A DNA stretch of 56,994 nt from positions 1-56,994 of the forward strand of contig JAISER010000039.1 in the NCBI GenBank assembly GCA_031263985.1, written 5' to 3'. The DNA is from Clostridiales bacterium. Lineage in GTDB: Bacteria; Bacillota; Clostridia; Lachnospirales; JAISER01. The notes beneath the pieces are model-generated. The model saw nothing but the letters and a program-made list of their open reading frames with translations. It ran no database searches and had not been told where the DNA came from. Numbering within the stretch: position 1 is the stretch's first letter; each line of letters opens with the position of its first letter. Below are positions 42,612 through 56,994 of the stretch, piece by piece. The position numbers were made by a program, and so were the translations under genes.

Positions 42612-44015
42612 ATGTTATGCCCAAATTGCTATTATGAGTTGGAACAGGACGATTTAGTATGTCCGAAGTGCGGCGTTGACGTCGACTTGTTCGCCATGAC
42701 CGCGGGAATATCCGACAGGTTGTACAACGGAGGGCTTGCGCGCGCCAAAGATGGAAACATGTCGGGGGCTGTCGAAGACCTTAAAAAAAGCGTCGGGTTC
42801 AATAACCGCAACATAACCGCGAGAAACTTGCTTGGTCTTGTATATTTTGAAACCGGACGCATAGGCGACGCTTTGGCGCATTGGGTCATTAGCGCTTCCA
42901 TTATGAGAGAAAACAACGCCGCTGGAGAATATCTTGACCGTGTGCAGAAAAACAGTCGCGAGCTTGAGCGTTTGAATGACGCGGTAAAGATGTACAACGG
43001 CGCGCTTGAATATCTGCGTCAAAAAAACGATGATATGGCCATTATACAGCTTAAAAAGGCGCTTGAAATAAATCCGGGGTTTGTTGATGCCTCCAATATG
43101 CTGGCGTTGTGCTATTTTATACAAAGAGACAAAGAAAAAGCGCGAATATATGTCGAAAAAGCGCTGGCTTCGGACAGTGGCAACGAGATCGCGCTCCGGT
43201 ACTATAAAGAGCTGTTCCCGTCGAAAACGCGTCCGGAACCGGTCAATATGGTTAAAAGGCCGCAGCGCGCGGTCAACGCGCATAATTTTTCGGCCATATT
43301 GCCTAAAGATAAGCGCAGTTTTGGCGGAACGTTTCACATAGCTGAGATTATATCCTTTTTGATAGGCGGAGCGTGCGTTCTGGCTATAGCTTATTTTTTG
43401 GTCGTGCCAGGTATAGTGCAGTCAAAGGACTCTTCCTATGAAAAAATGTTCAGTAGTCTTAACGCTGAGATATCGTCGGGCGAAGCCAGGATTAGCGCGT
43501 ACGAAGAGCGGGTTTCGGAGTCAGCTGCGCTGATAGAACGGCTTAGAGTCGAAAATGAGGAATATTCTCGTCAAGCTTCGCTGGAACGCCGTCTCGCTGA
43601 AATTGACAGGGCGGAGGCGCTGTTGAACGATGAGGACGACGCGTTAGGGGCGGCGGAGATACTGGCGGTTTTGGACATGACCGACATGACGGCGGAAGCC
43701 ATGCAGCGCGCGGCGGATTTAAAGATAGAGTCGTATCCCGACGCGGCGAGGCTATTGTACGACGACGCGGTGCGAAACTATAATCAGGAAAACTATCAGG
43801 AAGCGACGAGGTTTTTGGAGAAATGCCTTGTTTTTATAGACGCGGACGCGAGTTATATGGCCGGGGTCGTTTACCACAGAGGGCTTTTGGCGGAGCGTTC
43901 AGGCGATTTAACCGCAGCGAGGGGTTATTATGAAACGGTTATGGATCGATATTCTAATTCGAACTTCTTTACGCTCGCTCGATCAAGGCTTAATTCACTG
44001 AGCGACGAACGGTGA
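42612..44015 (+). CDS. Zinc-ribbon/TPR membrane protein
   Basis: N-terminal CPNC...CPKC, several TPR motifs, central TM helix, coiled coil, C-terminal TPRs. Confidence 0.85.
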   Translation: MLCPNCYYELEQDDLVCPKCGVDVDLFAMTAGISDRLYNGGLARAKDGNMSGAVEDLKKSVGFNNRNITARNLLGLVYFETGRIGDALAHWVISASIMRENNAAGEYLDRVQKNSRELERLNDAVKMYNGALEYLRQKNDDMAIIQLKKALEINPGFVDASNMLALCYFIQRDKEKARIYVEKALASDSGNEIALRYYKELFPSKTRPEPVNMVKRPQRAVNAHNFSAILPKDKRSFGGTFHIAEIISFLIGGACVLAIAYFLVVPGIVQSKDSSYEKMFSSLNAEISSGEARISAYEERVSESAALIERLRVENEEYSRQASLERRLAEIDRAEALLNDEDDALGAAEILAVLDMTDMTAEAMQRAADLKIESYPDAARLLYDDAVRNYNQENYQEATRFLEKCLVFIDADASYMAGVVYHRGLLAERSGDLTAARGYYETVMDRYSNSNFFTLARSRLNSLSDER

Positions 44016-44710: not shown

Positions 44711-45064
44711 ATGGAAGACAAAAAAAATTTTTTAGGGGTAAGCGATAATGCCCTGAGCGTTTTAAGCTATCTCTTCGGATGGGTTTCAGGGCTAATTATC
44801 TTTTTGGTTGAACAGGACAACAAGAAGGTTCGCTTTCACGCGTTGCAATCGACCGTATGGTTTGGGGGACTGACAGTCGTTTTCTTTGTACTCCGATTTT
44901 TGGGCGGGATACCGTTTATAGGCGGGGTATTCGGGGTTATTTCATCCATACTTGGGTTGCTTGCGACCGTTTCGTGGATAATACTTATGATAAAAGCTGG
45001 AAAAGGGGAAGAGTTTAAACTGCCTGTCATAGGCGACGCCGTGGCGGAGCAAGTTAACAAATAA
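44711..45064 (+). CDS. DUF4870-type small membrane protein
   Basis: LSYL.GW..GLI, VRFHA.QS, IKA..GE.FKLP.IG; three TM segments; RBS AGGAGG. Confidence 0.85.
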   Translation: MEDKKNFLGVSDNALSVLSYLFGWVSGLIIFLVEQDNKKVRFHALQSTVWFGGLTVVFFVLRFLGGIPFIGGVFGVISSILGLLATVSWIILMIKAGKGEEFKLPVIGDAVAEQVNK

Positions 45065-45082
45065 TTAATAATGCAAAACTTG

Positions 45083-45117
45083 AAAAAAAGAGTCGGTAAA
45101 AACCGGCTCTTTTTTTT
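45083..45117. terminator. Bidirectional terminator between convergent genes
   Basis: A7-GAGTCGGT-AAAA-ACCGGCTC-T8. Confidence 0.85.
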
Positions 45118-45125
45118 GTTTAAAT

Positions 45126-45287
45126 TTAACGATAGCCGCCCCAGCCGCCGAAACCGTAATTGTTCCAATAAGGGCGTTCCCAGAGACCGCGCCATAAACG
45201 ATTGCGACCCCAAATTTCCAATCCTCCGCCCCAAAACCCGCCATACGCGCCGGGCCAGCCTGAGTATGGATAACCGCCGAAGAACAT
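45126..45287 (-). CDS. Unannotated 53-aa Gly/Trp/Tyr-rich peptide
   Basis: RBS AAGGAGGTG; MFFGGYPYSGWPGAYGGFWGGGLEIWGRNRLWRGLWERPYWNNYGFGGWGGYR*; ends at the bidirectional terminator. Confidence 0.8.
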   Translation of the reverse strand: MFFGGYPYSGWPGAYGGFWGGGLEIWGRNRLWRGLWERPYWNNYGFGGWGGYR

Positions 45288-45322
45288 TTAAGCCCACCTC
45301 CTTCCCGACATTTGTATGCTAC

Positions 45323-45352
45323 ATATTATTCAGACTTGCGATTTGTTGTGAC
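45323..45352 (-). promoter_or_regulatory. Putative mother-cell (SigE/SigK-type) promoter of the 53-aa ORF
   Basis: Minus strand GTCACA-N16-AATAATAT. Confidence 0.45.
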
Positions 45353-45399
45353 AAGCTTTGCGATAAACTTTTCAAAAAGAAGGCGGGGGGCGCTTCTAA

Positions 45400-45547
45400 A
45401 GAGCGGAAAAGAGCTTTGGAAGTGTCTTTCCGGTCTTTGCTTAAAAACGGAGCGAAGCGAAGTTTTTAGCGTAAAAGCTTTTTGAGGGAGGTATGGAGGG
45501 AACTTTTTCTCGAAAAAGTTCCCTCCATTAAAGAAGTCTTCTGAAAA
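45400..45547 (+). repeat. Single dispersed copy of the ~179-bp REP-like unit
   Basis: AAAAACGGAGCGAAGCGAAGTTTTT...GGAGGGAACTTTTTCTCGAAAAAGTTCCCTCC. Confidence 0.8.
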
Positions 45548-45904
45548 TAATATCCCCAAGCGCTTCAAAATCCCTTTTTTAGCCTGTACGCGCGCTCTAA
45601 ATTAGGGAAAGGTTTCGCCGATATATATCATGACGCAGTAGCCTAAGTATCGGAATCCTTGGCGCATAGCCCGTTTAAAAAAGGGGAGGCGATTATCAAA
45701 TGAAACTTAGCGTAACGCTGACGTCTCAAAAAGACGCGAGCGGTCGTCGAAAAGTTGTACATCCGCCAATAACGGCGATTTCGCGACATCCATTTTTTTG
45801 CTATTTTTGTCAGAATAGCTTTTTTTTAAGCGGATATTCTAATCATAATGCTGAAAAAGCCAAATTGCCCAGTCGTGCCACAATATAAGAAAGAGGTGAC
45901 TGTC

Positions 45905-48900
45905 ATGTTGCTGCGTGATAAAAAATCAAAAAGGCTCTTAGCGTTTTTTATCGCATTCGCGATGATTTTATCGGATATAACCTTTATGCCCAAAAGCGCG
46001 TCAGCGGCGCCCGAACCTGGGTTTTTACTTACTATGACCAATATGCCTAAAAGGAACGGCATCAAAGCTGAATGGAACGATATAAGCGCGTCGCACGGCG
46101 GGCAAGACTTCGGGTACAGATATTACCAAAGAATGCTGACCGACGGAGAAAATATGGAGGAGAGCCTAAAGCCGGAGTGGGAATTAAGGAGCGCGAAATA
46201 TGGCAGGCCGATAAAAGTCCTCGTGATATCGCCGAACAATACTAACGTTCAGCAGTGGATGAAGAACGATATTCCAACGGTTGATCCTTATAATTTGATG
46301 AATATGACTACCATAAATCAGACTTATTTCGACGGTCTTGTCGATCCCGCGAGCGCTTTGAAAGATATAAACGGCAAGTACAACTATGACGTGGTAGTCC
46401 TTGGCACGGAGAACAGGAACGGCGGTATCAGCTACAGTCCGAAGAACGCTAAAACAGTCCCGGCCATCAGAGATTTTCTACAATCGGGACGAGGCGTATT
46501 GTTTGGTCATGGCAGCTTTTCAGAATACGAGTATGTGACGAACTTGAAAGACGACCAAGAGCTTGACTGGGTGTACACCGGCACCAAGGATCATTTCGGA
46601 GATAAATGGATGTATACGGCGTTACGCCATTATATTGGCGTTATAGCCGACGGTTCGCTCAAGCATTTCGCGCATGAAGGACCTCTAACCACCGGTAAAA
46701 ACAGTTATATAAAAATTGTTGAGCCAGGGTGGCTGCTGAGGTTTCCGATCAAATTACCGTTAGAAGGCGTGCTGCAAGTGCCGGACACCCATGTTAACAG
46801 TTCCATGACAAAAGGCAGAATATGGATGAAATTTACGGATGATAAGGGAAATCTCAGCAATTACTCCGAAAAAAAAGAAACCGATGACAGCAAACTGGAA
46901 TTCAGTGACTTTAGAAGTGTCCTTTATAAGCTGGAATATCTGCATGGTACTAGTTCGGAGAAGAAAAATTTTAGGGACCTCTACCTGATACCAAACAATT
47001 TGTACGGCGTTGGAGACAAACAAGTTATGTTTGACGACGGCGAAGGGAACGGAATAGCTGAGTATCACAGCAATTATTTTCTCTCAACGTATAATAACGC
47101 GGCTACGATACAGACGGGACACTCCGACGAGAAAGCTACCAACGCTGAGCGCTCGATCGTATCCAATACGCTTTTTTATTTGGCCCAGTTAACCTTTGAC
47201 ACGAATCTTGACGACTTTTCGGCGATAGATTACGCCGCGCCGTCGCAGCCTGCGGTTACGCTGTCGGATATCAATAACGGCAAAGTGATCGCAAAGATCT
47301 CTTCGCAGGATCAAGGAACGTGGTATGAGGGCAGAGTCGAGGCTTCGGGTCAGAGTAACGGCGCCCAATATGAATCGAACGTCGCGCGGGAAGAGACCGT
47401 AAGCGGCGTTCGAGGATATTATGTCAAAGTGTCGACGTCGCAAAACTACGACCCGTATGACGCCACTAAGACGGGGGATAATTTTGTCGGGCAGGCTGAC
47501 GGGGTTAACTATGTTGAATCGCAAGTTGATGAGTCCGTGGCCGCGAACAGCTACATGCACGTGCGCGCGATTGACTGGTCGGGCAATTTAAGCCCGGTGT
47601 ACAGCGTTAAACTCTCCGACATAATTTATAGCGTAAACGTCACTGTGTTGGATGACGACAACGACGCGCCCATACCCGGCGCTATCGTTCGCATGCTTGA
47701 AAAAACGCTTTATACGGAGCAAAACGGAACCGCGCGCATGACCGCGGACAAGACAGGTTCGTACGTCGTTATGGCCGCCGCGAGCGGTTACGCGCCTAAT
47801 TCGGCGTCGGTGGTTTTATCGGGCAATTCGGCGAGTTTGACGATTAGGCTTAGCAAGACGCCGTATGGCTTTATTTGGGGTTGCGTCAGAGACACGACGG
47901 GGCAGCCTATCGCCGGCGTGGAGGTGAGCCTTCCGGGCGTCGGCCTCACAGGCGAAACGGACGGAGCGGGGTATTATTATATCAGCAATGCGCCGACGCC
48001 CGCGACATATACGATATTGGCGTCCAAAAGCGGATATAACGGCGGCTACGCCACAGGTCTTACGTTAGAAAGTCAGGGGTATAAAAGAAGAGACTTTACG
48101 CTTACCGAACAAACAGGTTCGAATAACGCGTATATTGTTAGCGGCAAAGTCACGGATGTTGACAGCGCGGAGGCGCTTGAGAACGTTAGAGTCAAGGTGG
48201 ATAACGCAGTCGCGTTTACCGATAGCTACGGATGGTACGTTACGGGTTATCACGACGCGGGAGATAAAGTCGTCGCGGCCGGCGCCACGGGCTATCGGGA
48301 CCTTTATGTAAACACTGCCGTTTCAATCGTGTCAAGCGATGTCCGGCACGATCTCACGCTCAAAAAGGATCAAGGGCTTGGCGAAGTGGAAGTAACGGTA
48401 GTTGAAAAGGGAACTACGATTCCTATCAGAAACGTTAACGTGTTTTTAGGCTACTCAGGTCCGTTCGCCACGGGTAATGACGGAAAGGTCACAATAAGGG
48501 AGATAGCCATCGGCAGCTATACGATGAGAGCCGAAGCGGGCTATTATAACGTAGGCTATTATAACGCGACCAGCTCGTTAATTGAGTTCGCGCAGGGCGA
48601 ACCCCCGAAAACCGCTACCATTGAAATGGAGCCGGGAACTTTGGGCGCCATGTACGGACGCGTAATCGACAATGCGACGGGCGCCGGAGTGGACGGCGCG
48701 ACGGTTAAAACGATGACCGGTCAGACGACCGTGACGAACGCTCAGGGCTATTATATACTGCCGGATCTCGAAGGCATGAAGTATTATTCAGTCATGGCTT
48801 CGCACACGGACTACAATACGTCCGCGGCCAGAGCGTTTTTGAATCCTTCGGCCTATACGACGCAAAACTTTTATATCAACGCCATAGACGGAACCCCCGA

Positions 48901-51900
48901 ACACATAATATACGGGCAGTTGACGGAGGAAGAAAACGGCGAGGTCGTAGCTGACGCCGAGATGATGGCGAATGTATCCAACTTCGCTAATACTGATAGT
49001 TTCGGTTATTATATCTTGACAGGGTTCGCTGACGGCGGCGACGTGAATATCGAGGCGCGCAAAGCCCCGTTTAAAGTCGTGAAAAAAAGCGTGATGAATA
49101 TAACGGCGGATGAGCGGGTTGACATAGCCTTGCCGCTTGCGATAATGATAACGTTTAAGGGCGTGGACGTTAACGACGGCCAAAACGTTCTTTACAGCGT
49201 GCAGGTTCGCATACCGACGACGCGAAATTATCTTTTTAACCCCGATGAGCTGAATATCGTCGGGACGGCCGGATATGTAAGGACCGATGGCGGCGGCGCC
49301 ATAGAGATTAATCCGGCGACGTTTGAAGACCCCGAAGTGATTATACCGTACAGATATAACAAGGAAATGGTTACCGTTCAGGCTGTGTTTGAAAAATCGG
49401 ACGGATCTTATGACGTTTTGGCGAGTTTCCAAATGGAAGCCGTTATAGGCGGAATGTTTGAATATACGAAAGAATTAACGCATTACAGCGGCTACGAATT
49501 TTCCAGAAGGGATCAGCCGAAGCTTATTTACGCGGACGCCGAGAACGTCTATAATCTGTATTATGTGAAATCGCAGGGCAATATGCGAATTGCGGCGCTT
49601 GACGTTGATGACCCCAGCTATATTATAGGATACAGGGATTACAATGTCGCGCTTCATGAGACGGTCACGGCCGATGACGACTGGTTGGCGCCGCATATAG
49701 GCGACGTTGAGGAATTGCAATATTATGATTTTGAGCCGGGATCGGGACGATTGTTCAAGTTGGACTCTAACGACGATGTTGACGAGTTCGTTTACGACGG
49801 ATATACGATGGACTATGGACTGTCATTTAATTTTAAGAGAAGAACCGAAGATATATCGATCAAGCTTTTGGACGACGAAACCGGCGATGACATTAAAAAG
49901 ACGGTTATTCCGGACGTGACGGTTCAGGCCGGCAGATCAACGGTAATAAACGCGGTCGATTACGCGTCGTATGTCAGCGACGGGTATACGCTCGTGGGAG
50001 AAAGCTCCAAGATCGTTAATTCCAATTTGACCGGGCCTTACGAAGTGAGCTTTTATTACAGAAAAACGCCCGGTTCCGTTACCGTTAATCTTGTGGAAAA
50101 AGATACGAGCGACATTATTCAGACGATTTATTATCCCGCTACGACCGACTCGCAGAGTATAGCGGCTCCGACCGTCGCGGGATGGACGCATGACCCGTCT
50201 GACGCCGCGTCCAAAAACGCCGTCGCGGGCGAAACGGTTCAATTTGTTTATACGCGTTCGGTTGCGACCGTTAATATCGCCGGCGTGTACGCCGCGGATG
50301 GTTCGCCCGTGCCGCAGGCGTCGTTAAGTCCGAACAGCGTTACGTTCGCCTCGGGGCTTTCCGGCGTAATTTACGCGCCGCATTTGCAAGGCTATGACCC
50401 GGTGGCGTACTCTACGGACGGCGGCGCTACGTGGACTGACGGAACTACGGCGTCGTTCACCGCGGCGGAAGTCGCGGCGCTTACGACGGTTACTTTTAAA
50501 TACGCGCGCTACAACACGGTTAAATTGAACGTTAAATATGTAGATGACAGCGATTCCAAAGAGATATATTCTTATACGATGGATTTCCCGGCGGATTACG
50601 GCTTGTACTCCATTCAGGCGAAGCCGATGCATCGTTACTCGCTGATAGGCGCCCCGTCGAGGGACGTGACTATAACGAATTCCGACGTTACGGCGGAGTT
50701 TAGGTTTAAGTCGCTGAAAACGCGCGTGGAGATAAAGGCCGAAGACGGATCGGGCGCTCCCGTGCCCGGTTTTACGCCTTATTATGAGACGGCTTATGTG
50801 AACGAGCCGTTTACGCTTAACGCGCCTTATATTTCCTATTGGACGGCCGACGACGTTTCGCTTACTATACCTTCCGTAAGCGAGAACGATGAGATGAAGT
50901 TCGTTTATACGCGGGAAACGGGCAATTACACGCTGTTCCACGTCGAATCTTCCGACGACCCGAACTATGACGGAAGAATACTGGCTACGACTAATTTAAA
51001 CGCTTGGCCGCCCGCGCAATATGAGATTGACATTCCGTATTATGAAGCGTCGGCGCAGCAGCCGGATATAGGCGACGGGCAAGTCAGCGGCTCTTCACGC
51101 GTGGAAAGAAACGTATATTATACGAGGCTTACGTCGCAAGTCGCCGTTAACTATCAGAACGGGTTGGGAGAGCCTATAGCGGCGTCTGACGATTATACCT
51201 TTAGAATGGGCGAAAGCGCGGTTGTGTTCGCTAAGCCGATATCGGGCTACAGGGTAACGAATCCCGCCGTCGGAGCGGTTGTAACGATTCCCGAAAACCC
51301 GAACGAGACGATTACGTTCACCTATGGCGCCATTGACGATGGAGTGATAGAAATTTACTCGGTGGACGCCGTCAGCGGCAAGACGCTGCAATATAATTCC
51401 ATGACGGTCGCTCCGGGCGGTTCAGCCGTCGTGACGGCGCCGAAAATATACGGCTACAGATTGCAAGATCCGGCGAGTTCGCCCGTAAACGCCGCGGGCG
51501 GCGACGCGGTTATGTTCGCTTACGTGGAGGATTACGCCTCCGTAACGATAAACGTCGTTGACGAGAACGGAAACGACATAATGCCGCCGATCGCTCGCAA
51601 AGCGCCTATAGGTCTTCCTTACACGGCCTACGCGCCGAATGTAAAAGGCTACGCGCTCGCCGATTTTTCGAAAGGCTCGCGTTATTTCTCAAGCGTGCAA
51701 GGCGGAGAGGAATGTACGTTCACGTACCGTCCGCTGGATGACCCGCTGCTTTGGGTCGATGTAAATATAACGGGCGTTGACCAGGACAGTTCGGCGACGC
51801 TCTACGCGTACACGGTAAAACGTCCGGCGGATTCGGGCGCTTATACGGTTCACGCGTTTAATCAGGCCGGGTATGATATAGTCGGCGACGATTTTAAAAC

Positions 51901-54900
51901 CGTGGCGATAGGCGCCGGGGGGACGTATATTGATGTCGAGTTCGCCTATTCGTCGCTGTCGTCAACTGTGACGATACGCGCCGAAGACGGGACGGGCGCG
52001 CCGATAGCGGACTTCGCGCCGATAACGGTCGCGGCGACGCGCGGCCAGCCGTTCAGCTACAACGCGCCTTATATAGCGGGCTGGCATATAGCCGACGTCA
52101 ACGAAGCCGTTAAAGTCATAACGGTCAACGGCGCTGATGAAGAAATCAAGTTCGTTTACGATAAAAACGCGGGCAATGTGACCGTTTTACTCAAAGAGGC
52201 CGCGGACGGCCGTATAATAGCAAGCGACAGCATAACGGCCAACGAGGGAGATACGGTGAACTATACGGATCTCAGCGCTCTGTTGTATTATACGATTACG
52301 GGCGCGACGAGCAAGACGGTTCATTTAAGCGACCCTGTGATAGAATTTTTCTACGATAAAACGCTGGTGACCGTTGACGTGATAAGCAGAGACGAGGGGC
52401 AAGCCGTAATAACGCGCGGCGGCGATCAATCCGTTTATCCGCAAGCTGGGCTTAGGAAGGGCGAAGTATCATCGTTTTACGCCTATCCTGAGGAAGGATA
52501 CAGGCTGAATGACGATACCGTTAAGAACGCGCTTGTCAACGACGCGCTTGAGGCGTCCGGCTTATCGTTCGCTTACGCGGCGATAGGTTCGGGAGAGATA
52601 GTCGTAGAAGCCGTTGAAGACGATACGAACCATATTTTGCAGCAGACAAGGATAGCCTCCATGACGACGCTTTCAGTTCAGGCGCCGAATATAGCCGGAT
52701 ATATCCTTCAGGGCGCGCGCTCGCAATCCGTGTCGCCCGGAGGCAAGGCTACGTTCAGGTATATCAAAAACGCCGTAAATATAAGCGTCAAACTGCTGGA
52801 TGAGGACACGGGGCTTGAAATACCCGCGATCGCCGGGACTTCGGCGTTCGCGCGAGCCGCCAGAGGAACGAGCTTTACCGTTTACGCCCCGCACGCGCCG
52901 GGCTATATGCTGACGTCTCAGCCGTCGATAACGTTCCCGAACGTTACGGACGGCCTGGAGGCTGTGTTTTACTATGCTTCCTTGCAAAGCGTCATCGATA
53001 AAAACGTTGTCAACATAACGGTGAACGGTTTAAGCGACGGCGGTCAGAAACTTTACAGCTACAATATGCGCAGAGACAGGGCGGCGGGTTCCGTAGAGGT
53101 CTCAGCGTTCGATTTGCAGGGATACGCGCTGATTACGGCTTCGCCGGCTGTAATCGCTATAGGTGACGAATCGGACTTGAGCTATACGTTCGAATATCGT
53201 TCGCTCGCCGCGGAAGTCGTCATAAGGACGGTTGACGGCGCGGACGCGGAAATATCCCGGGAATTTGCGGTTTCGGCGACGGAAGGCCAGCCGTTTTCAT
53301 ATTCGGCGCCTTATGTGCCGGGCTGGGATATAAACGACGACGTTTACAAAACGATAGCGTCGGTGGACATGTCCGTTGACGCCGGGCATATAATAACGTT
53401 CCGATATAATCAGGCGACGGGCAACGTATTCGCCGTATGGAAGGAAAATGACGCTAACGGAAGAATAATCGGAAGCGAAAGCTTCTCTATAACGGAAACT
53501 TCTGACGCCGCGGCCAGGACATTTAGTCCGAAGGATTTGTCAGGGGCTTATTACACGCCTATAAGCGGCTCGAAGACTGTTAATTATTCGCCGGATACGC
53601 AGACGATAGAGTTCTACTACAGCAAAATGACGACGTCGGTATCGGTGAAATATATGAAAGGCGCGGAGACGCTTGACGCCGGTTCGGTCGGTAACCTTCG
53701 CGTTGGTGAGACGGCTGTGTTCGCCGCGAAGTCTTTCGACAATCTCTATGTCGTCGGAGACGCCGTGAAATCGGTCTTGGTAACCGCTTTGGGCAGCCAG
53801 GAAGTTATATTTAACTACGCGGACATACCGGCTGACGCCATTATCGTTGAAGCCGTAGATTACGCGTCCGCGGAGTTGCTTAGCTCTTCCGTCGTCAGAG
53901 CGGCGACAGGTTCGTCCGTTACTATAAACGCGCCTGAAATCGTGGGTTATAAGCTTATAAGCGAGCCGTCCAAAACGGTTGTCGCGCCGGGGAAAGCGCG
54001 GTTTGACTTCGCAGAGGACAATGTGACGGTTACTCTCGTGCTGAAAGACGACTTGGGCGGACTTTTACCCATACCGTACGGGACGGAGCGGGTGACCAAG
54101 GTTCCGCGAGGAACGAATTACGTCGCTTACGCGCCGCACGCGCCGGGCTACGCGCTGGCTGACGGCGAAAAGGCGAGTCAGACGTTTATGTCTGTTCAGA
54201 CGAACAAATTCGCTGAGTTTACGTACGTTCCCGTTTCGAACGTAATTGATCAGTACGCCGCCGTCGTAACCATAATAGGCGTGGATGAGGACGCGCCGGG
54301 AGAAGAGCTGTACAGCTATACCGTCAAGAAGCAAAAAACCGTCGCGCCGCTTGAAGTGTCGGCGTTCGAGCTGCCGGGCTACGAGCTTATCGACCCGGCG
54401 TCTTCGCCCGCGTATGTCGATATATCAGTCGCTTCCGAAGCGGAGCATAGGTTTACGTACAGATCGCTCGCGACGGAAGTTAGTATACGCGCCGAAGAAT
54501 ATGGGACAGGAGGGCAGCTTGTACCGGGATTCAGGCCGGTTACGGCTCCGGCTGTAAAAGGCTCTCCGTTTGGCCATTCCGCGCCATATATAGAGGGTTG
54601 GAGCGTCGTCTCCGCGTCTGAAACGTATAAGACGATAGACTCCGTATTGGGCGGAGAGGTAATGACGTTCGTTTATACCCAAAATACGGGCAATGTAACC
54701 GTGTTGTGGAAGGAAAACGACGCGAATGGCAAGATAATAGGTTCGCGCTCGGAAACTGTCGGCGCCGGCGGCGCGACTATAAACGCGGATGATCTCAGCG
54801 GCGTTAATTATACGCCTGTCGGTCCGAACCAGATAAATGTCGCGTATTCCGCCCAGCCTCAGACAGTGGAGTTTTATTACGCTAAAAACGTGAAGAGCGT

Positions 54901-56994
54901 ACAGGTTAAATACGTTGAAGATTATGGTGATTCGGAGATCATGCCGCCTACCGACTATTCGTCGCTTCGCGTCGGCGAGCCTTTTACGTTTAACGCGCTG
55001 TACGTTTCGAATATGATTGTAAAAGGCGCCGTTTCCGTAACGAAAATAGTTACGGCCGCGCTTGATGAAGTCGTGTTCAGATATAAGCCGATTCCGGAGA
55101 ACGTCATCGTTGTGGAATCGGTGGACGAATATGGATCGCTGATACAAAGATCGACAGTTACGGCGTCGAATGGCGTCACTATGTCTATAACCGCGCCGGC
55201 TATACCGGGTTACGCGTTGACGAGCGCAAGCCGTCAGACCGTGACGGCGCCGGGTAAAGCGACGTTTGAATTCCGCGAGGACAGCGTTAACGTCACGTTA
55301 AGCGCGGTAACGGCGCAAGGAACGCCGATACCGCTGCCTTCCGGCGTACAGGGCGTGACGAAGGCCGCGCGCGGTTCAATGCATACGGTTTACGCGCCTC
55401 ATATACCGGGGTATGTCCTTATGTCCGTCACTCAGAGCGTGACGTTCCGCGCGACCGCCGCTAGAACGGTTGAGTTCGAGTACGCCAGGGTTCAGGAAGC
55501 GCTCGAAGGATATTTAGTCAATATAACCGTAGAGGGGCTTGACGCTAGCGGTAACGAGCTTTATTCCTATTCGTTCACAAGCGTGAAAGATACCGGCGAT
55601 ATAACGGTGAACGCTATGCCGCTTCCTAATTATGAACTTACGTCGGCGGCGTCTCAAAGCGTTCCGACTACGGGCGATTCAATCGTGACGTTCAATTACG
55701 CCTCGCTTGCGACCGTTGTGACGATAGAAGCGGTTGACGATTTAGGAACGGCTATATCCGGCTTCACGCCTATAGTCGCTCCGGCGGTGAAAGGTCAGCC
55801 GTTCAGCTATGCCGCGCCTTATATAAACGGCTGGAATTTGATTGACAAGAATAATTTTGTGAAGACGATAAACTCAGTGGATCCGTCTGCGGACGCCGGG
55901 CATATAATGACGTTCGCATATGGGAAGTCAATAGGAAACGTAACCGTCGTTTTGAAAGAAGACGATACGAACGGAGCCATTATAGCCGTAAGAAACGAAG
56001 AAGCGGATATCAATGGGCTTGAGATTTTGCCTGAGGATCTTTCTTCGCTCTATTACACGCTTATAGGTCCCGTGAAGCATGATGTGGCGTACTCCGACCA
56101 GTCGCAGACCGTGGAATTCTATTATGAAAAAGAAGTGACGAACGTGACGGTGGAACACCGTGACAGTTCCGGAGGAGCGCTTCTTCAATCCGAAACTATA
56201 AATGACGTGAGACTTGGCGAAACGTATACGTTCAATTCCGTCGCGATAGCGGGCAAGACCGTGATGGGGGCGGCTTCGCGCGCTATAACGGTTGACAGGA
56301 TGACGTCGCCTGTAGTGTTCTCTTATGTGGGCGTTTTAGCGGGCGTCATATCGGTGGACGCTCAGGATGAGCTAGGGAATGTGTTGAGAAGCTTTACGAT
56401 ATATTCCGTGCCCGGAACGGATATGACCGTAGCCGCGCCGGCGATTCTGGGATATAAGCTTACTGCGGGCGAACAGGCGTCGAAGGCGGTTCAATCGCCG
56501 GGAACGGTCAGCTTCATTTATGAGAAAGATGAAGTGAGGATAACGGCGGAGCTGAAAGACTCGAACGGTCAGTCGTTAACGCCTCCGGCGGGTTATCAGC
56601 CGTTGATTCAGGTTCCGCGCGGCGTTTCGAGCGTAATATACGCGCCGCATTTGTCGGGCTATTTGATAAGCGGGAACAGTTCCGCGACAGTTGACGGCGA
56701 CGCGGACGAGACTGTGACGTTTAGTTATATTTCCGTTCAAGAAGCGGTCAACGAGTACGTGACGCAGATTACGGTGCGCGGCGCGGACGAGACGGGCAAG
56801 ACGCTGTACTCGTACTCGTTCACGAAGCCGAGAAACGGCGAAAACGCCAAAGTTACGGCGTTCGCGCTGTCGGGCTACCGGCTGACGACTCCGTCGCCGG
56901 CGGTGGTCGACGCCGCGAACAAGGCGGTCGCCGAGCACACGTTCCAATACGAGTCGCTGGAGACGACCGTCACGATCAACGCGGTCGAGACGGG
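45905..56994 (+). CDS. Giant secreted repeat (adhesin-like) protein, partial (>3,690 aa): signal peptide, N-terminal globular domain, 6 carboxypeptidase-regulatory-like repeats, many MucBP-like repeats
   Basis: RBS AAAGAGGTG, ATG at 45905; MLLRDKKSKRLLAFFIAFAMIL...ASA signal peptide. The same frame reads sensibly at every point checked through the last codons (FQYESLETTVTINAVET). It is absent from the ORF track, consistent with no stop inside the window. Confidence 0.9.
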   Translation, partial: MLLRDKKSKRLLAFFIAFAMILSDITFMPKSASAAPEPGFLLTMTNMPKRNGIKAEWNDISASHGGQDFGYRYYQRMLTDGENMEESLKPEWELRSAKYGRPIKVLVISPNNTNVQQWMKNDIPTVDPYNLMNMTTINQTYFDGLVDPASALKDINGKYNYDVVVLGTENRNGGISYSPKNAKTVPAIRDFLQSGRGVLFGHGSFSEYEYVTNLKDDQELDWVYTGTKDHFGDKWMYTALRHYIGVIADGSLKHFAHEGPLTTGKNSYIKIVEPGWLLRFPIKLPLEGVLQVPDTHVNSSMTKGRIWMKFTDDKGNLSNYSEKKETDDSKLEFSDFRSVLYKLEYLHGTSSEKKNFRDLYLIPNNLYGVGDKQVMFDDGEGNGIAEYHSNYFLSTYNNAATIQTGHSDEKATNAERSIVSNTLFYLAQLTFDTNLDDFSAIDYAAPSQPAVTLSDINNGKVIAKISSQDQGTWYEGRVEASGQSNGAQYESNVAREETVSGVRGYYVKVSTSQNYDPYDATKTGDNFVGQADGVNYVESQVDESVAANSYMHVRAIDWSGNLSPVYSVKLSDIIYSVNVTVLDDDNDAPIPGAIVRMLEKTLYTEQNGTARMTADKTGSYVVMAAASGYAPNSASVVLSGNSASLTIRLSKTPYGFIWGCVRDTTGQPIAGVEVSLPGVGLTGETDGAGYYYISNAPTPATYTILASKSGYNGGYATGLTLESQGYKRRDFTLTEQTGSNNAYIVSGKVTDVDSAEALENVRVKVDNAVAFTDSYGWYVTGYHDAGDKVVAAGATGYRDLYVNTAVSIVSSDVRHDLTLKKDQGLGEVEVTVVEKGTTIPIRNVNVFLGYSGPFATGNDGKVTIREIAIGSYTMRAEAGYYNVGYYNATSSLIEFAQGEPPKTATIEMEPGTLGAMYGRVIDNATGAGVDGATVKTMTGQTTVTNAQGYYILPDLEGMKYYSVMASHTDYNTSAARAFLNPSAYTTQNFYINAIDGTPEHIIYGQLTEEENGEVVADAEMMANVSNFANTDSFGYYILTGFADGGDVNIEARKAPFKVVKKSVMNITADERVDIALPLAIMITFKGVDVNDGQNVLYSVQVRIPTTRNYLFNPDELNIVGTAGYVRTDGGGAIEINPATFEDPEVIIPYRYNKEMVTVQAVFEKSDGSYDVLASFQMEAVIGGMFEYTKELTHYSGYEFSRRDQPKLIYADAENVYNLYYVKSQGNMRIAALDVDDPSYIIGYRDYNVALHETVTADDDWLAPHIGDVEELQYYDFEPGSGRLFKLDSNDDVDEFVYDGYTMDYGLSFNFKRRTEDISIKLLDDETGDDIKKTVIPDVTVQAGRSTVINAVDYASYVSDGYTLVGESSKIVNSNLTGPYEVSFYYRKTPGSVTVNLVEKDTSDIIQTIYYPATTDSQSIAAPTVAGWTHDPSDAASKNAVAGETVQFVYTRSVATVNIAGVYAADGSPVPQASLSPNSVTFASGLSGVIYAPHLQGYDPVAYSTDGGATWTDGTTASFTAAEVAALTTVTFKYARYNTVKLNVKYVDDSDSKEIYSYTMDFPADYGLYSIQAKPMHRYSLIGAPSRDVTITNSDVTAEFRFKSLKTRVEIKAEDGSGAPVPGFTPYYETAYVNEPFTLNAPYISYWTADDVSLTIPSVSENDEMKFVYTRETGNYTLFHVESSDDPNYDGRILATTNLNAWPPAQYEIDIPYYEASAQQPDIGDGQVSGSSRVERNVYYTRLTSQVAVNYQNGLGEPIAASDDYTFRMGESAVVFAKPISGYRVTNPAVGAVVTIPENPNETITFTYGAIDDGVIEIYSVDAVSGKTLQYNSMTVAPGGSAVVTAPKIYGYRLQDPASSPVNAAGGDAVMFAYVEDYASVTINVVDENGNDIMPPIARKAPIGLPYTAYAPNVKGYALADFSKGSRYFSSVQGGEECTFTYRPLDDPLLWVDVNITGVDQDSSATLYAYTVKRPADSGAYTVHAFNQAGYDIVGDDFKTVAIGAGGTYIDVEFAYSSLSSTVTIRAEDGTGAPIADFAPITVAATRGQPFSYNAPYIAGWHIADVNEAVKVITVNGADEEIKFVYDKNAGNVTVLLKEAADGRIIASDSITANEGDTVNYTDLSALLYYTITGATSKTVHLSDPVIEFFYDKTLVTVDVISRDEGQAVITRGGDQSVYPQAGLRKGEVSSFYAYPEEGYRLNDDTVKNALVNDALEASGLSFAYAAIGSGEIVVEAVEDDTNHILQQTRIASMTTLSVQAPNIAGYILQGARSQSVSPGGKATFRYIKNAVNISVKLLDEDTGLEIPAIAGTSAFARAARGTSFTVYAPHAPGYMLTSQPSITFPNVTDGLEAVFYYASLQSVIDKNVVNITVNGLSDGGQKLYSYNMRRDRAAGSVEVSAFDLQGYALITASPAVIAIGDESDLSYTFEYRSLAAEVVIRTVDGADAEISREFAVSATEGQPFSYSAPYVPGWDINDDVYKTIASVDMSVDAGHIITFRYNQATGNVFAVWKENDANGRIIGSESFSITETSDAAARTFSPKDLSGAYYTPISGSKTVNYSPDTQTIEFYYSKMTTSVSVKYMKGAETLDAGSVGNLRVGETAVFAAKSFDNLYVVGDAVKSVLVTALGSQEVIFNYADIPADAIIVEAVDYASAELLSSSVVRAATGSSVTINAPEIVGYKLISEPSKTVVAPGKARFDFAEDNVTVTLVLKDDLGGLLPIPYGTERVTKVPRGTNYVAYAPHAPGYALADGEKASQTFMSVQTNKFAEFTYVPVSNVIDQYAAVVTIIGVDEDAPGEELYSYTVKKQKTVAPLEVSAFELPGYELIDPASSPAYVDISVASEAEHRFTYRSLATEVSIRAEEYGTGGQLVPGFRPVTAPAVKGSPFGHSAPYIEGWSVVSASETYKTIDSVLGGEVMTFVYTQNTGNVTVLWKENDANGKIIGSRSETVGAGGATINADDLSGVNYTPVGPNQINVAYSAQPQTVEFYYAKNVKSVQVKYVEDYGDSEIMPPTDYSSLRVGEPFTFNALYVSNMIVKGAVSVTKIVTAALDEVVFRYKPIPENVIVVESVDEYGSLIQRSTVTASNGVTMSITAPAIPGYALTSASRQTVTAPGKATFEFREDSVNVTLSAVTAQGTPIPLPSGVQGVTKAARGSMHTVYAPHIPGYVLMSVTQSVTFRATAARTVEFEYARVQEALEGYLVNITVEGLDASGNELYSYSFTSVKDTGDITVNAMPLPNYELTSAASQSVPTTGDSIVTFNYASLATVVTIEAVDDLGTAISGFTPIVAPAVKGQPFSYAAPYINGWNLIDKNNFVKTINSVDPSADAGHIMTFAYGKSIGNVTVVLKEDDTNGAIIAVRNEEADINGLEILPEDLSSLYYTLIGPVKHDVAYSDQSQTVEFYYEKEVTNVTVEHRDSSGGALLQSETINDVRLGETYTFNSVAIAGKTVMGAASRAITVDRMTSPVVFSYVGVLAGVISVDAQDELGNVLRSFTIYSVPGTDMTVAAPAILGYKLTAGEQASKAVQSPGTVSFIYEKDEVRITAELKDSNGQSLTPPAGYQPLIQVPRGVSSVIYAPHLSGYLISGNSSATVDGDADETVTFSYISVQEAVNEYVTQITVRGADETGKTLYSYSFTKPRNGENAKVTAFALSGYRLTTPSPAVVDAANKAVAEHTFQYESLETTVTINAVET

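Follow-up and report, generated by a model that had tools for sequence, protein, structure and literature searches.

The question raised by this locus is what kind of protein is made from a gene that fills about one fifth of its contig and is still incomplete where the contig ends. The window, that is the whole stretch of DNA analysed here, is the entire 56,994-nt contig JAISER010000039.1 (C81) of a Clostridiales bacterium, from an assembly of 2.14 Mb in 124 contigs which is 89.8% complete. An earlier note on this DNA, made from the letters alone, had proposed a very long fibrillar adhesin and an undescribed system. The results given below indicate that the 3,696 residues encoded here are probably the N-terminal part of a far longer fibrillar surface protein of a termite-gut Bacillota, presumably anchored by S-layer homology (SLH) domains, whose head would bind glycans or serve in adhesion. 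The protein is a new adhesin of a known, fibre-like kind, and full-length relatives are already in the databases, uncharacterised.

Reading frame and architecture

The + strand frame 45848..56992 is free of stops to the window end (3,715 codons in the ORF listing and translation). From the ATG at 45905, taken by the earlier note as the start, the gene has 3,696 codons and encodes 3,696 residues as assembled, without an in-frame stop, and is cut by the contig end. A ribosome-binding site was also looked for at the upstream in-frame ATG 45848 and none was seen. The note had called the gene invisible to the ORF track; the ORF is indeed absent when open-ended ORFs are excluded and appears when they are allowed, merely because the gene runs off the contig. 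The parts recognised are as follows.

45892..45898, + strand: ribosome-binding site AGAGGTG, 6 nt 5' of ATG 45905, read from the sequence
45905..46006, + strand: putative signal peptide, aa 1-34, with predicted cleavage ASA/AP (MLLRDKKSKRLLAFFIAFAMILSDITFMPKSASA followed by AP), from sequence features
46007..47284, + strand: head, aa 35-460, comprising a short N-terminal beta part (aa ~35-100) and a predicted ThuA-like / class I glutamine-amidotransferase-like core (aa ~101-432), from homologues and a model
46856..47068, + strand: lineage-specific head insertion, aa ~318-388, seen in alignments and of low model confidence
47285..47626, + strand: beta-sandwich module, aa 461-574, ending ...YMHVRAIDWSGNLSP, from homologue coverage and the consensus of alignment A1 (FN3-like, a fold name assigned without a test)
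47627..49138, + strand: six CarboxypepD_reg-like modules, aa 575-653, 654-741, 742-825, 826-913, 914-999 and 1000-1078, from Pfam with boundaries set by eye
49139..50710, + strand: seven MucBP-like modules, aa 1079-1602, that precede the regular super-repeats and of which the first three are weak, from a module hidden Markov model (HMM) and by eye
50711..56953, + strand: five super-repeats, aa 1603-3683, each made of six MucBP-like modules of types a-f, with a period of 411-425 aa, from alignment, module HMM and model
56954..56994, + strand: start of a sixth super-repeat, aa 3684 on (SLETTVTINAVET), 13 residues before the contig end, from translation and alignment
56744..56994, + strand: stretch common to a Logan contig of 2,340 nt and depth 83.7 that runs on downstream (2 differences)

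The protein is thus ordered as a 426-aa head, a beta-sandwich module, six CarboxypepD_reg modules and 37 MucBP-like modules, the stalk totalling 43 small modules. In the first residues a basic n-region, a hydrophobic core and the ASA site were recognised by eye on the translation, not by a predictor; these are the three regions of a Sec-type signal peptide, which the N-terminus is likely to be, as the earlier note had read it. The domain order given there is upheld, and so is the general picture of a long stalk that keeps an N-terminal domain at a distance from the cell.

The stalk

The six repeats of about 80 residues reported earlier were recovered at aa 575-1078. They match Pfam CarboxypepD_reg (PF13620) above its gathering score (E 1.3e-35; 122 bits against a cut-off of 32.3), with four stretches passing singly, and also PF13715 (E 6.8e-22). 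The dozens of 65-75-aa modules that had been described beyond them are represented by 34 contiguous matches to the module HMM (aa 1316-3687, E 4e-5 to 2e-21), scores that are partly circular as the HMM was built from 30 of the same 34 modules, and by three weaker modules (aa 1079-1314) segmented by eye. Independently of this HMM, Pfam MucBP (PF06458) is matched above its gathering score for the protein as a whole (67.9 bits against 23), with no single stretch of the giant protein passing alone. Ahead of the regular super-repeats the module HMM matched at aa 1316-1390, 1391-1454, 1455-1538 and 1541-1606.

The last 30 modules form the super-repeats, which start at aa 1603, 2017, 2433, 2854 and 3267 and are each about 415 aa long. 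All 30 were matched by the HMM made from them (E 8e-6 to 2e-21). Complete copies are 30-43% identical in pairwise alignment. At the DNA level short motifs recur about 1242-1251 nt apart, and TRF reported no tandem arrays in this part.

An AlphaFold model of the fourth super-repeat (SR4; predicted local distance difference test score, pLDDT, 85.7) is a string of small beta modules. The top Foldseek matches to it were YwfG (7yl4, E 2e-8), an immunoglobulin-binding protein of R. gnavus, the TIE protein of B. anthracis and Mub repeats. For one SR4 module (residues 142-210), VIA-align gave YwfG 7yl4 at Z 8.5 (root-mean-square deviation, rmsd, 2.1; 64 aligned), followed among MucBP/Mub structures by 4mt5 (Mub-RV, Z 7.5), 3q69 (7.3), 2kt7 (7.0), 3i57 (6.8), 3lyy (6.4) and 3nz3 (6.2), with rmsd 2.1-2.8 over 64-68 residues and Z values that are middling on the program's own scale. 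The modelled modules have the beta-grasp MucBP fold. Given these structural matches together with those of Pfam, both domain names used in the earlier note, carboxypeptidase-regulatory-like and MucBP-like, were right.

The a-f order is also found in homologues bearing other heads: P0162 reads abcdef six times, P0163 reads ...defabcdefabcdefabcde, and P0166 keeps the order as well. The stalk of P0006, a Paenibacillus protein with the same head, holds abcdef. The modules of these homologues were typed with HMMs made from the window, a procedure independent for the homologues and circular for the window itself. That different heads stand on the same stalk fits a generic spacer with an exchangeable tip.

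The head domain

Pfam at E<=0.01 returned no family for the head, or for the first 570 residues as a whole, except a weak match to DUF7327, and NCBIfam returned none for the whole giant protein. Homologues are plentiful: a HMMER search of 1.84 billion representatives (clusters at 50% identity) gave 560 at E<=1e-3 and 440 at 1e-10, bearing one to four copies of the domain. Among 72 homologues scanned by Pfam the anchors included SLH, dockerin, CHU_C/Por_Secre_tail, WxL, LPXTG and choline-binding repeats, and the one head-only homologue whose N-terminus was read has a signal peptide if its start is an upstream TTG; the family is therefore likely to be extracellular. In contigs representing one genome per species 212 head-domain loci were confirmed, mostly in Bacillota, and the 79 kept are all <=31% identical over long matches. 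Cluster members are publicly named 'DUF5057', 'S-layer homology', 'DUF1542' or 'hypothetical'; a search for shorter named homologues gave three matches, none with a name, and a literature search on 'DUF5057' found no publication. On sequence grounds this is a large, extracellular and uncharacterised family without a name, occurring in Bacillota and some Bacteroidota.

The AlphaFold2 model of the head, made from a 44-sequence alignment, has pLDDT 74.5 and a predicted template modelling score of 0.78, with pLDDT below 50 at model residues 294-355, which correspond to the insertion. P0006 has a gap in place of this insertion; in the homologue P0008 the stretch exists with little conservation, and no phmmer match in the homologues listed spans it. 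With the model, Foldseek retrieved 4pxy, 4jqs, 4e5v and 2gk3 (E 2.6e-4 to 6.9e-4, with probability 1.00 at E 3e-4), and VIA-align over 48,161 chains ranked 4jqs (Z 15.6, 215 aligned, rmsd 3.9), 1t0b (15.4), 2gk3 (15.2), 3rht (14.5) and 4e5v (14.2) highest. The next VIA matches were amidotransferases, class I glutamine-amidotransferase (GATase1)-like accessory domains of GH42, GH29 and GH164 enzymes, Agd3, PelA, IFT52 and OST48-type subunits. The modelled fold of the head is ThuA-like and class I glutamine-amidotransferase-like.

Membership of ThuA (PF06283) was not found at the sequence level. Alignment of the head profile with 12 ThuA sequences by hhalign was not significant (E 0.12, probability 0.5%), two conserved His-containing head motifs being colinear with ThuA in it, and PF06283 had no match in the genome carrying the giant gene. 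A PDB sequence search with the head profile gave only two chance matches (E 0.048 and 0.16). Head residues 70-222 do align with positions 241-376 of a bona fide DUF5057 member (hhalign probability 96%, E 2.4e-9, 125 columns). The Pfam DUF5057 model (PF16480) did not match the giant protein at E<=0.01 or the head alone at E<=0.1, and weak, partial matches were seen in 14 of 44 head-family members (alignment A1). By profile comparison the head is distantly related to DUF5057, in its first half only. The named family nearest in language-model features was DUF4960, at 0.89 for the head and 0.87 for another member of its family, a lead only, the scores lying below the line of 0.9. No DUF4960 match was found in three Bacteroidota genomes or in 60 further genomes, apparently of the window's own order.

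The family has four near-invariant motifs, GRGVLFGHD, P.TH, IQTGH and (D)E..I.ANT. By loose regular expressions on 161 stored matches, 118 of ~122 elbow motifs read GHD, and the invariant E has a D before it in 117 of 125. The giant protein retains H202, H296, H406 and E415. The Cys of the Cys-His-Glu glutaminase triad has no counterpart: the strand GRGVLF is followed here by GHG and in the family by GHD, so the head is unlikely to be an amidotransferase. By the topology of the fold the GHG/GHD motif would lie at the nucleophile elbow, and the His-Asp/His/His/Glu site would occupy the active-site position of amidotransferases.

The beta-sandwich module comes after the head in most homologues, with the consensus SG.KGY...Y.HI.AVD.AGN.S and the ending ...H(I/V)xAxDxAGN in alignment A1, and query residues 389-570 are the best-matched stretch in most of the 150 homologues listed.

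The domain also occurs in other settings. Two RHS-repeat proteins with C-terminal toxin-type domains, P0009 and P0012, share ~30% and ~78% of the query region aa 30-620, which is thus present in RHS-type as well as adhesin-like proteins. In Oscillospiraceae (Caproiciproducens, Caproicibacter, Ethanoligenens, Pygmaiobacter and others) a conserved gene cluster that encodes ParB and a type IV secretion coupling protein also encodes a 557-aa head-plus-sandwich protein, or one of 620 aa with a signal peptide if the start is an upstream TTG (loci L020, L021, L023, L024, L027, L029, L036, L039, L042, L043, L060, L073 and L082; the head gene lies at ~9.7-11.5 kb of L036). These two partners suggest conjugative elements and hint at a role in cell-cell contact. 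Head genes stand in tandem arrays of four paralogues on an Aneurinibacillus plasmid (L010, 5.3-16.5 kb), three in Bacillus sp. M6-12 (L071, 6.9-20.7 kb) and two in Enterococcus (L081, 7.8-14.4 kb); the Enterococcus loci have five unannotated upstream neighbours in common.

The missing C-terminus

The check proposed in the earlier note, extension of the contig to a stop and an anchor, succeeded in part: some 2.1 kb was added in super-repeat register, and neither a stop nor an anchor was reached. In a termite-gut metagenome run that is possibly the source of the window DNA, two Logan contigs (depth 9.75 and 11.7) cover 51995-56773 with no differences. The high-depth Logan contig listed above has other short matches at offsets of 44, 777, 927 and 90 nt into SR2, SR4, SR3 and SR2, respectively. 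By our own arithmetic on these offsets it would span the whole of SR6 and reach about 875 nt into a seventh super-repeat, in register. As it continues past the window, the gene goes on for at least ~2.1 kb. The contig would end at 56994 because the gene there enters repeat copies too alike to assemble, and the full protein probably extends for several thousand residues more.

An SLH end is found in all three of the full-length head homologues with best coverage (P0006, P0014 and P0008) and in all five complete stalk homologues (P0163, P0164, P0165, P0167 and P0168); the other two of the seven stalk homologues are labelled partial and are without SLH. SLH is matched 39 times in the genome, in about 17 frames, and three of the other giant frames there (3,607, 3,319 and 2,225 aa) end in C-terminal SLH. 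Since these three and 8/8 complete homologues end in this way, the missing C-terminus presumably carries an SLH anchor. Genes of the pyruvyl-transferase family are also present, which is weak evidence as the family was matched in nine of 14 control genomes.

The genome holds seven frames of more than 2,000 aa. The six besides the giant gene are all on the - strand: Flg_new (C10:10414-21234, 3,607 aa, C-terminal SLH), PKD/Big/CHB_HEX_C (C109:16394-26350, 3,319 aa, C-terminal SLH), YDG/MBG/fn3 (C117:5471-12145, 2,225 aa, C-terminal SLH), 26 Flg_new_2 repeats (C101:6541-16140, 3,200 aa), Big_13 (C85:561-7568, 2,336 aa) and a nonribosomal peptide synthetase (C26:13343-22744, 3,134 aa).

Comparison with known proteins

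The closest proteins are two database entries from Paenibacillus thiaminolyticus / P. dendritiformis, P0006 (2,660 aa) and P0014 (2,261 aa, e.g. WP_133383166.1), both uncharacterised and named 'DUF5057 domain-containing protein' or, equivalently, 'S-layer homology domain-containing protein'. Like the giant protein they begin with a signal sequence, carry the same head and beta-sandwich (33% identity over aa 31-582 for P0006, 39% for P0014) on a stalk of the same MucBP-like types with runs 'abcdef' and 'defab' and Pfam MucBP matches, and lack D414. Unlike it they are complete, with an SLH end, and shorter (20 and 13 typed modules), lack CarboxypepD_reg stretches and the insertion at aa ~318-388, and keep GHD where the giant protein has GHG. 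Because such uncharacterised public relatives combine the same head, stalk modules and SLH, and because this is a lone gene among housekeeping genes, the suggestion of an undescribed system is not supported.

The same stalk, at 28-35% identity over aa 2854-3696, is present in giants of uncultured Clostridia (P0162, P0163 and P0166, RCC1-like; P0164 and P0165, CarboxypepD_reg with MucBP and SLH). These keep the six-module order, and the complete ones have a C-terminal SLH, but their heads are an RCC1-like propeller, beta-helix repeats or a pectate-lyase-like domain, none of them ThuA-like.

Fibrillar adhesins are secreted proteins that combine repeated stalk domains with an adhesive domain and an anchor to the surface; of these features the giant protein has, by sequence, the secretion signal and the tandem stalk domains. 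MUB of Limosilactobacillus reuteri (PDB 3i57, 4mt5) and YwfG of Lactococcus lactis (7yl4) likewise have long tandem arrays of MucBP-type beta-grasp domains on a Gram-positive surface. Both are anchored by sortase through LPXTG; Mub repeats are ~184 aa long, and the head of YwfG is an L-type lectin. The giant protein differs in its anchor, probably SLH, in a repeat unit of six single modules and in its predicted ThuA-like head. MUB is described in PMC5796085 as fibre-like, about 180 nm long and composed of 14 two-domain repeats.

The head resembles ThuA-like / class I glutamine-amidotransferase-like proteins (4jqs, 4pxy, 4e5v, 1t0b, 2gk3, 3rht) in its modelled fold, at Z 14.2-15.6 over 194-215 residues. 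Those proteins are small (~245-280 residues) and one entry title says cytoplasmic, the others being assumed so, whereas the head is predicted to be extracellular and on a stalk, with large insertions, no Cys nucleophile and no sequence-level membership. DUF5057 has only the C-terminal third of its model in common with the head, and DUF5057 proper is rare (above cut-off in 3 of 201 genomes of the class). DUF4960 is described as a levan-binding, Rossmannoid flavodoxin-like glycan-binding domain from gut Bacteroidota (PMC10076258); its likeness to the head is one of language-model features only.

Weighing the explanations

Several observations weigh against an SLH-anchored protein whose head is adhesive or binds glycans. 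Pfam gave no known adhesive domain in the giant protein, the head not being a recognised one, and likeness of a modelled fold alone is no proof of head function. Residue 203 is D in 43/43 aligned homologues and G here, giving GHG instead of GHD, and the head departs from near-universal residues also at N107V, D170N, D179P, Y392F and D414A, D414 being lost as well in the Paenibacillus proteins and related SLH giants; the function of the family's site, whatever it is, may be changed or absent in the giant protein. The head domain was found in only one of 40 related genomes. Pfam SLH (PF00395) was not matched in aa 1-3696, so that the assembled part has no anchor and the C-terminus lies beyond the contig. 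Attempts to find the continuation gave nothing: tblastn of the giant protein against all 124 contigs had no match below E 1.4 outside the window's own contig; the module HMM, run on all stop-to-stop frames >=150 aa of the genome, matched that contig alone; among frames open at a contig 5' end (best 23 of 29) none was stalk-like or on an SLH contig; and of 86 pattern matches in Joint Genome Institute metagenome contigs scanned with aa 3267-3696 none was confirmed. The 7-8-fold depth of the extending Logan contig is what collapsed near-identical repeat copies would give, and since depth does not translate into copy number, the length still missing is uncertain. Finally, the genome has three sortase genes, which makes an LPXTG end possible.

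Those sortases, together with head-family members elsewhere that end in LPXTG, WxL, choline-binding, dockerin or type IX secretion domains, are the case for a different anchor (sortase/LPXTG or membrane) or for a free, released fibre. This is quite unlikely in view of the SLH ends of every complete close homologue of head or stalk and of the three other giants of the genome. An assembly artefact or a decaying pseudogene might be suspected in a gene truncated within repeats, in an assembly as fragmented as this one. It is highly improbable: the frame is stop-free over 11 kb while the other five hold only short ORFs, the two independent Logan contigs over 51995-56773 agree without a difference, and domain-level homology extends throughout. 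The divergence of the super-repeat modules moreover argues that they are not a mis-assembled collapse.

It could also be that the head is an enzyme rather than a binder, a glycan- or wall-modifying activity tethered to the surface on a long spacer, the family being a new catalytic one with a His/Asp/His/Glu site. The invariant or near-invariant polar residues of the four motifs speak for it, as do their position at the conserved His of ThuA and glutamine amidotransferases (in the non-significant hhalign alignment with ThuA), the dockerins of some family members, as in cellulosomal enzymes, and the recurrence of GATase1-like domains in carbohydrate-active enzymes among the fold matches (GH42, GH29, GH164, Agd3, PelA). 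The giant protein, however, has lost the near-universal Asp and D414, so that the site, if catalytic, is probably dead here; the glutaminase Cys is absent, no family member with an assayed activity and no publication on 'DUF5057' was found, and a 43-module stalk is typical of adhesins, not enzymes. We consider this explanation unlikely. Slightly less so, though still improbable, is that the stalk itself is the adhesin, its modules binding ligands multivalently along the fibre as in MUB, with the head as an accessory. MUB repeats are described as binding mucin glycans themselves, along the fibre and not via the tip (PMC5796085). The modules studied here have the MucBP fold by modelling, and the retention of six module types in order across proteins with different heads suggests individual roles. 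Against this, the same stalk with RCC1-like or ThuA-like heads fits a generic spacer with a swappable functional tip, and no binding residues are known for the stalk modules; the idea is in any case compatible with the preferred reading of an adhesive or glycan-binding head on a stalk.

Two further candidates were rejected. A cellulosomal component was dismissed as Pfam found no dockerin or cohesin in the assembled part, and a phage tail fibre was ruled out by the housekeeping nature of the neighbouring genes.

Genomic surroundings

The neighbours are genes typical of Bacillota housekeeping, encoding valyl-tRNA synthetase, class 3 fructose-1,6-bisphosphatase, RelA/SpoT and histidyl-tRNA synthetase, besides a tetratricopeptide repeat (TPR) protein and one with DUF4870. 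The giant gene is preceded by about 430 nt of non-coding DNA. An Rfam scan of 44900-46100 found no family at gathering score, and promoter and terminator scans of the upstream DNA were near chance level. None of the three public runs checked for expression of the giant gene listed an RNA dataset. Other features of this region are as follows.

42612-44015, + strand: protein of 467 aa with a zinc ribbon at its N-terminus and TPR repeats after it, 1.9 kb 5' of the giant gene
45081-45118: terminator-like hairpin 3' of the DUF4870 gene, without an Rfam match
45487-45530: long perfect hairpin GGAGGGAACTTTTTC...GAAAAAGTTCCCTCC, ~375 nt 5' of the start codon, without an Rfam match

Implications

If the favoured interpretation of a stalked, SLH-anchored surface protein holds, the Sec signal peptide would send the giant protein out of the cell and the missing SLH domains would tie it non-covalently to a cell-wall polymer. 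The stalk, which by our own scaling from L. reuteri MUB would be well over 100 nm long, would hold the head far from the wall, where the head, and possibly the stalk modules too, may bind a gut glycan or surface such as wood particles, other microbes or protists. Adhesion by the giant protein is a plausible prediction. A bolder proposal, which we regard as rather doubtful, is that the head family forms a new class of surface enzymes that process glycans, or of glycan binders that depend on a metal, acting through its invariant His-Asp/His/His/Glu site, and that the head of the giant protein is an enzyme-derived, catalytically dead lectin displayed more than 100 nm from the wall on a conserved, undescribed six-module unit.

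The gene illustrates how short-read assemblies truncate genes of this kind, as it takes up about one fifth of its contig and is still incomplete. As one more case of its class it contributes little; for specialists the interest lies in an abundant extracellular family with a predicted ThuA fold and a strongly conserved polar site, and in the conserved order of six modules in MucBP-like stalks which is common to different heads. More generally, what a gut bacterium adheres to is determined by giant stalked surface proteins; in the termite gut this may be wood particles, protists or partner microbes.

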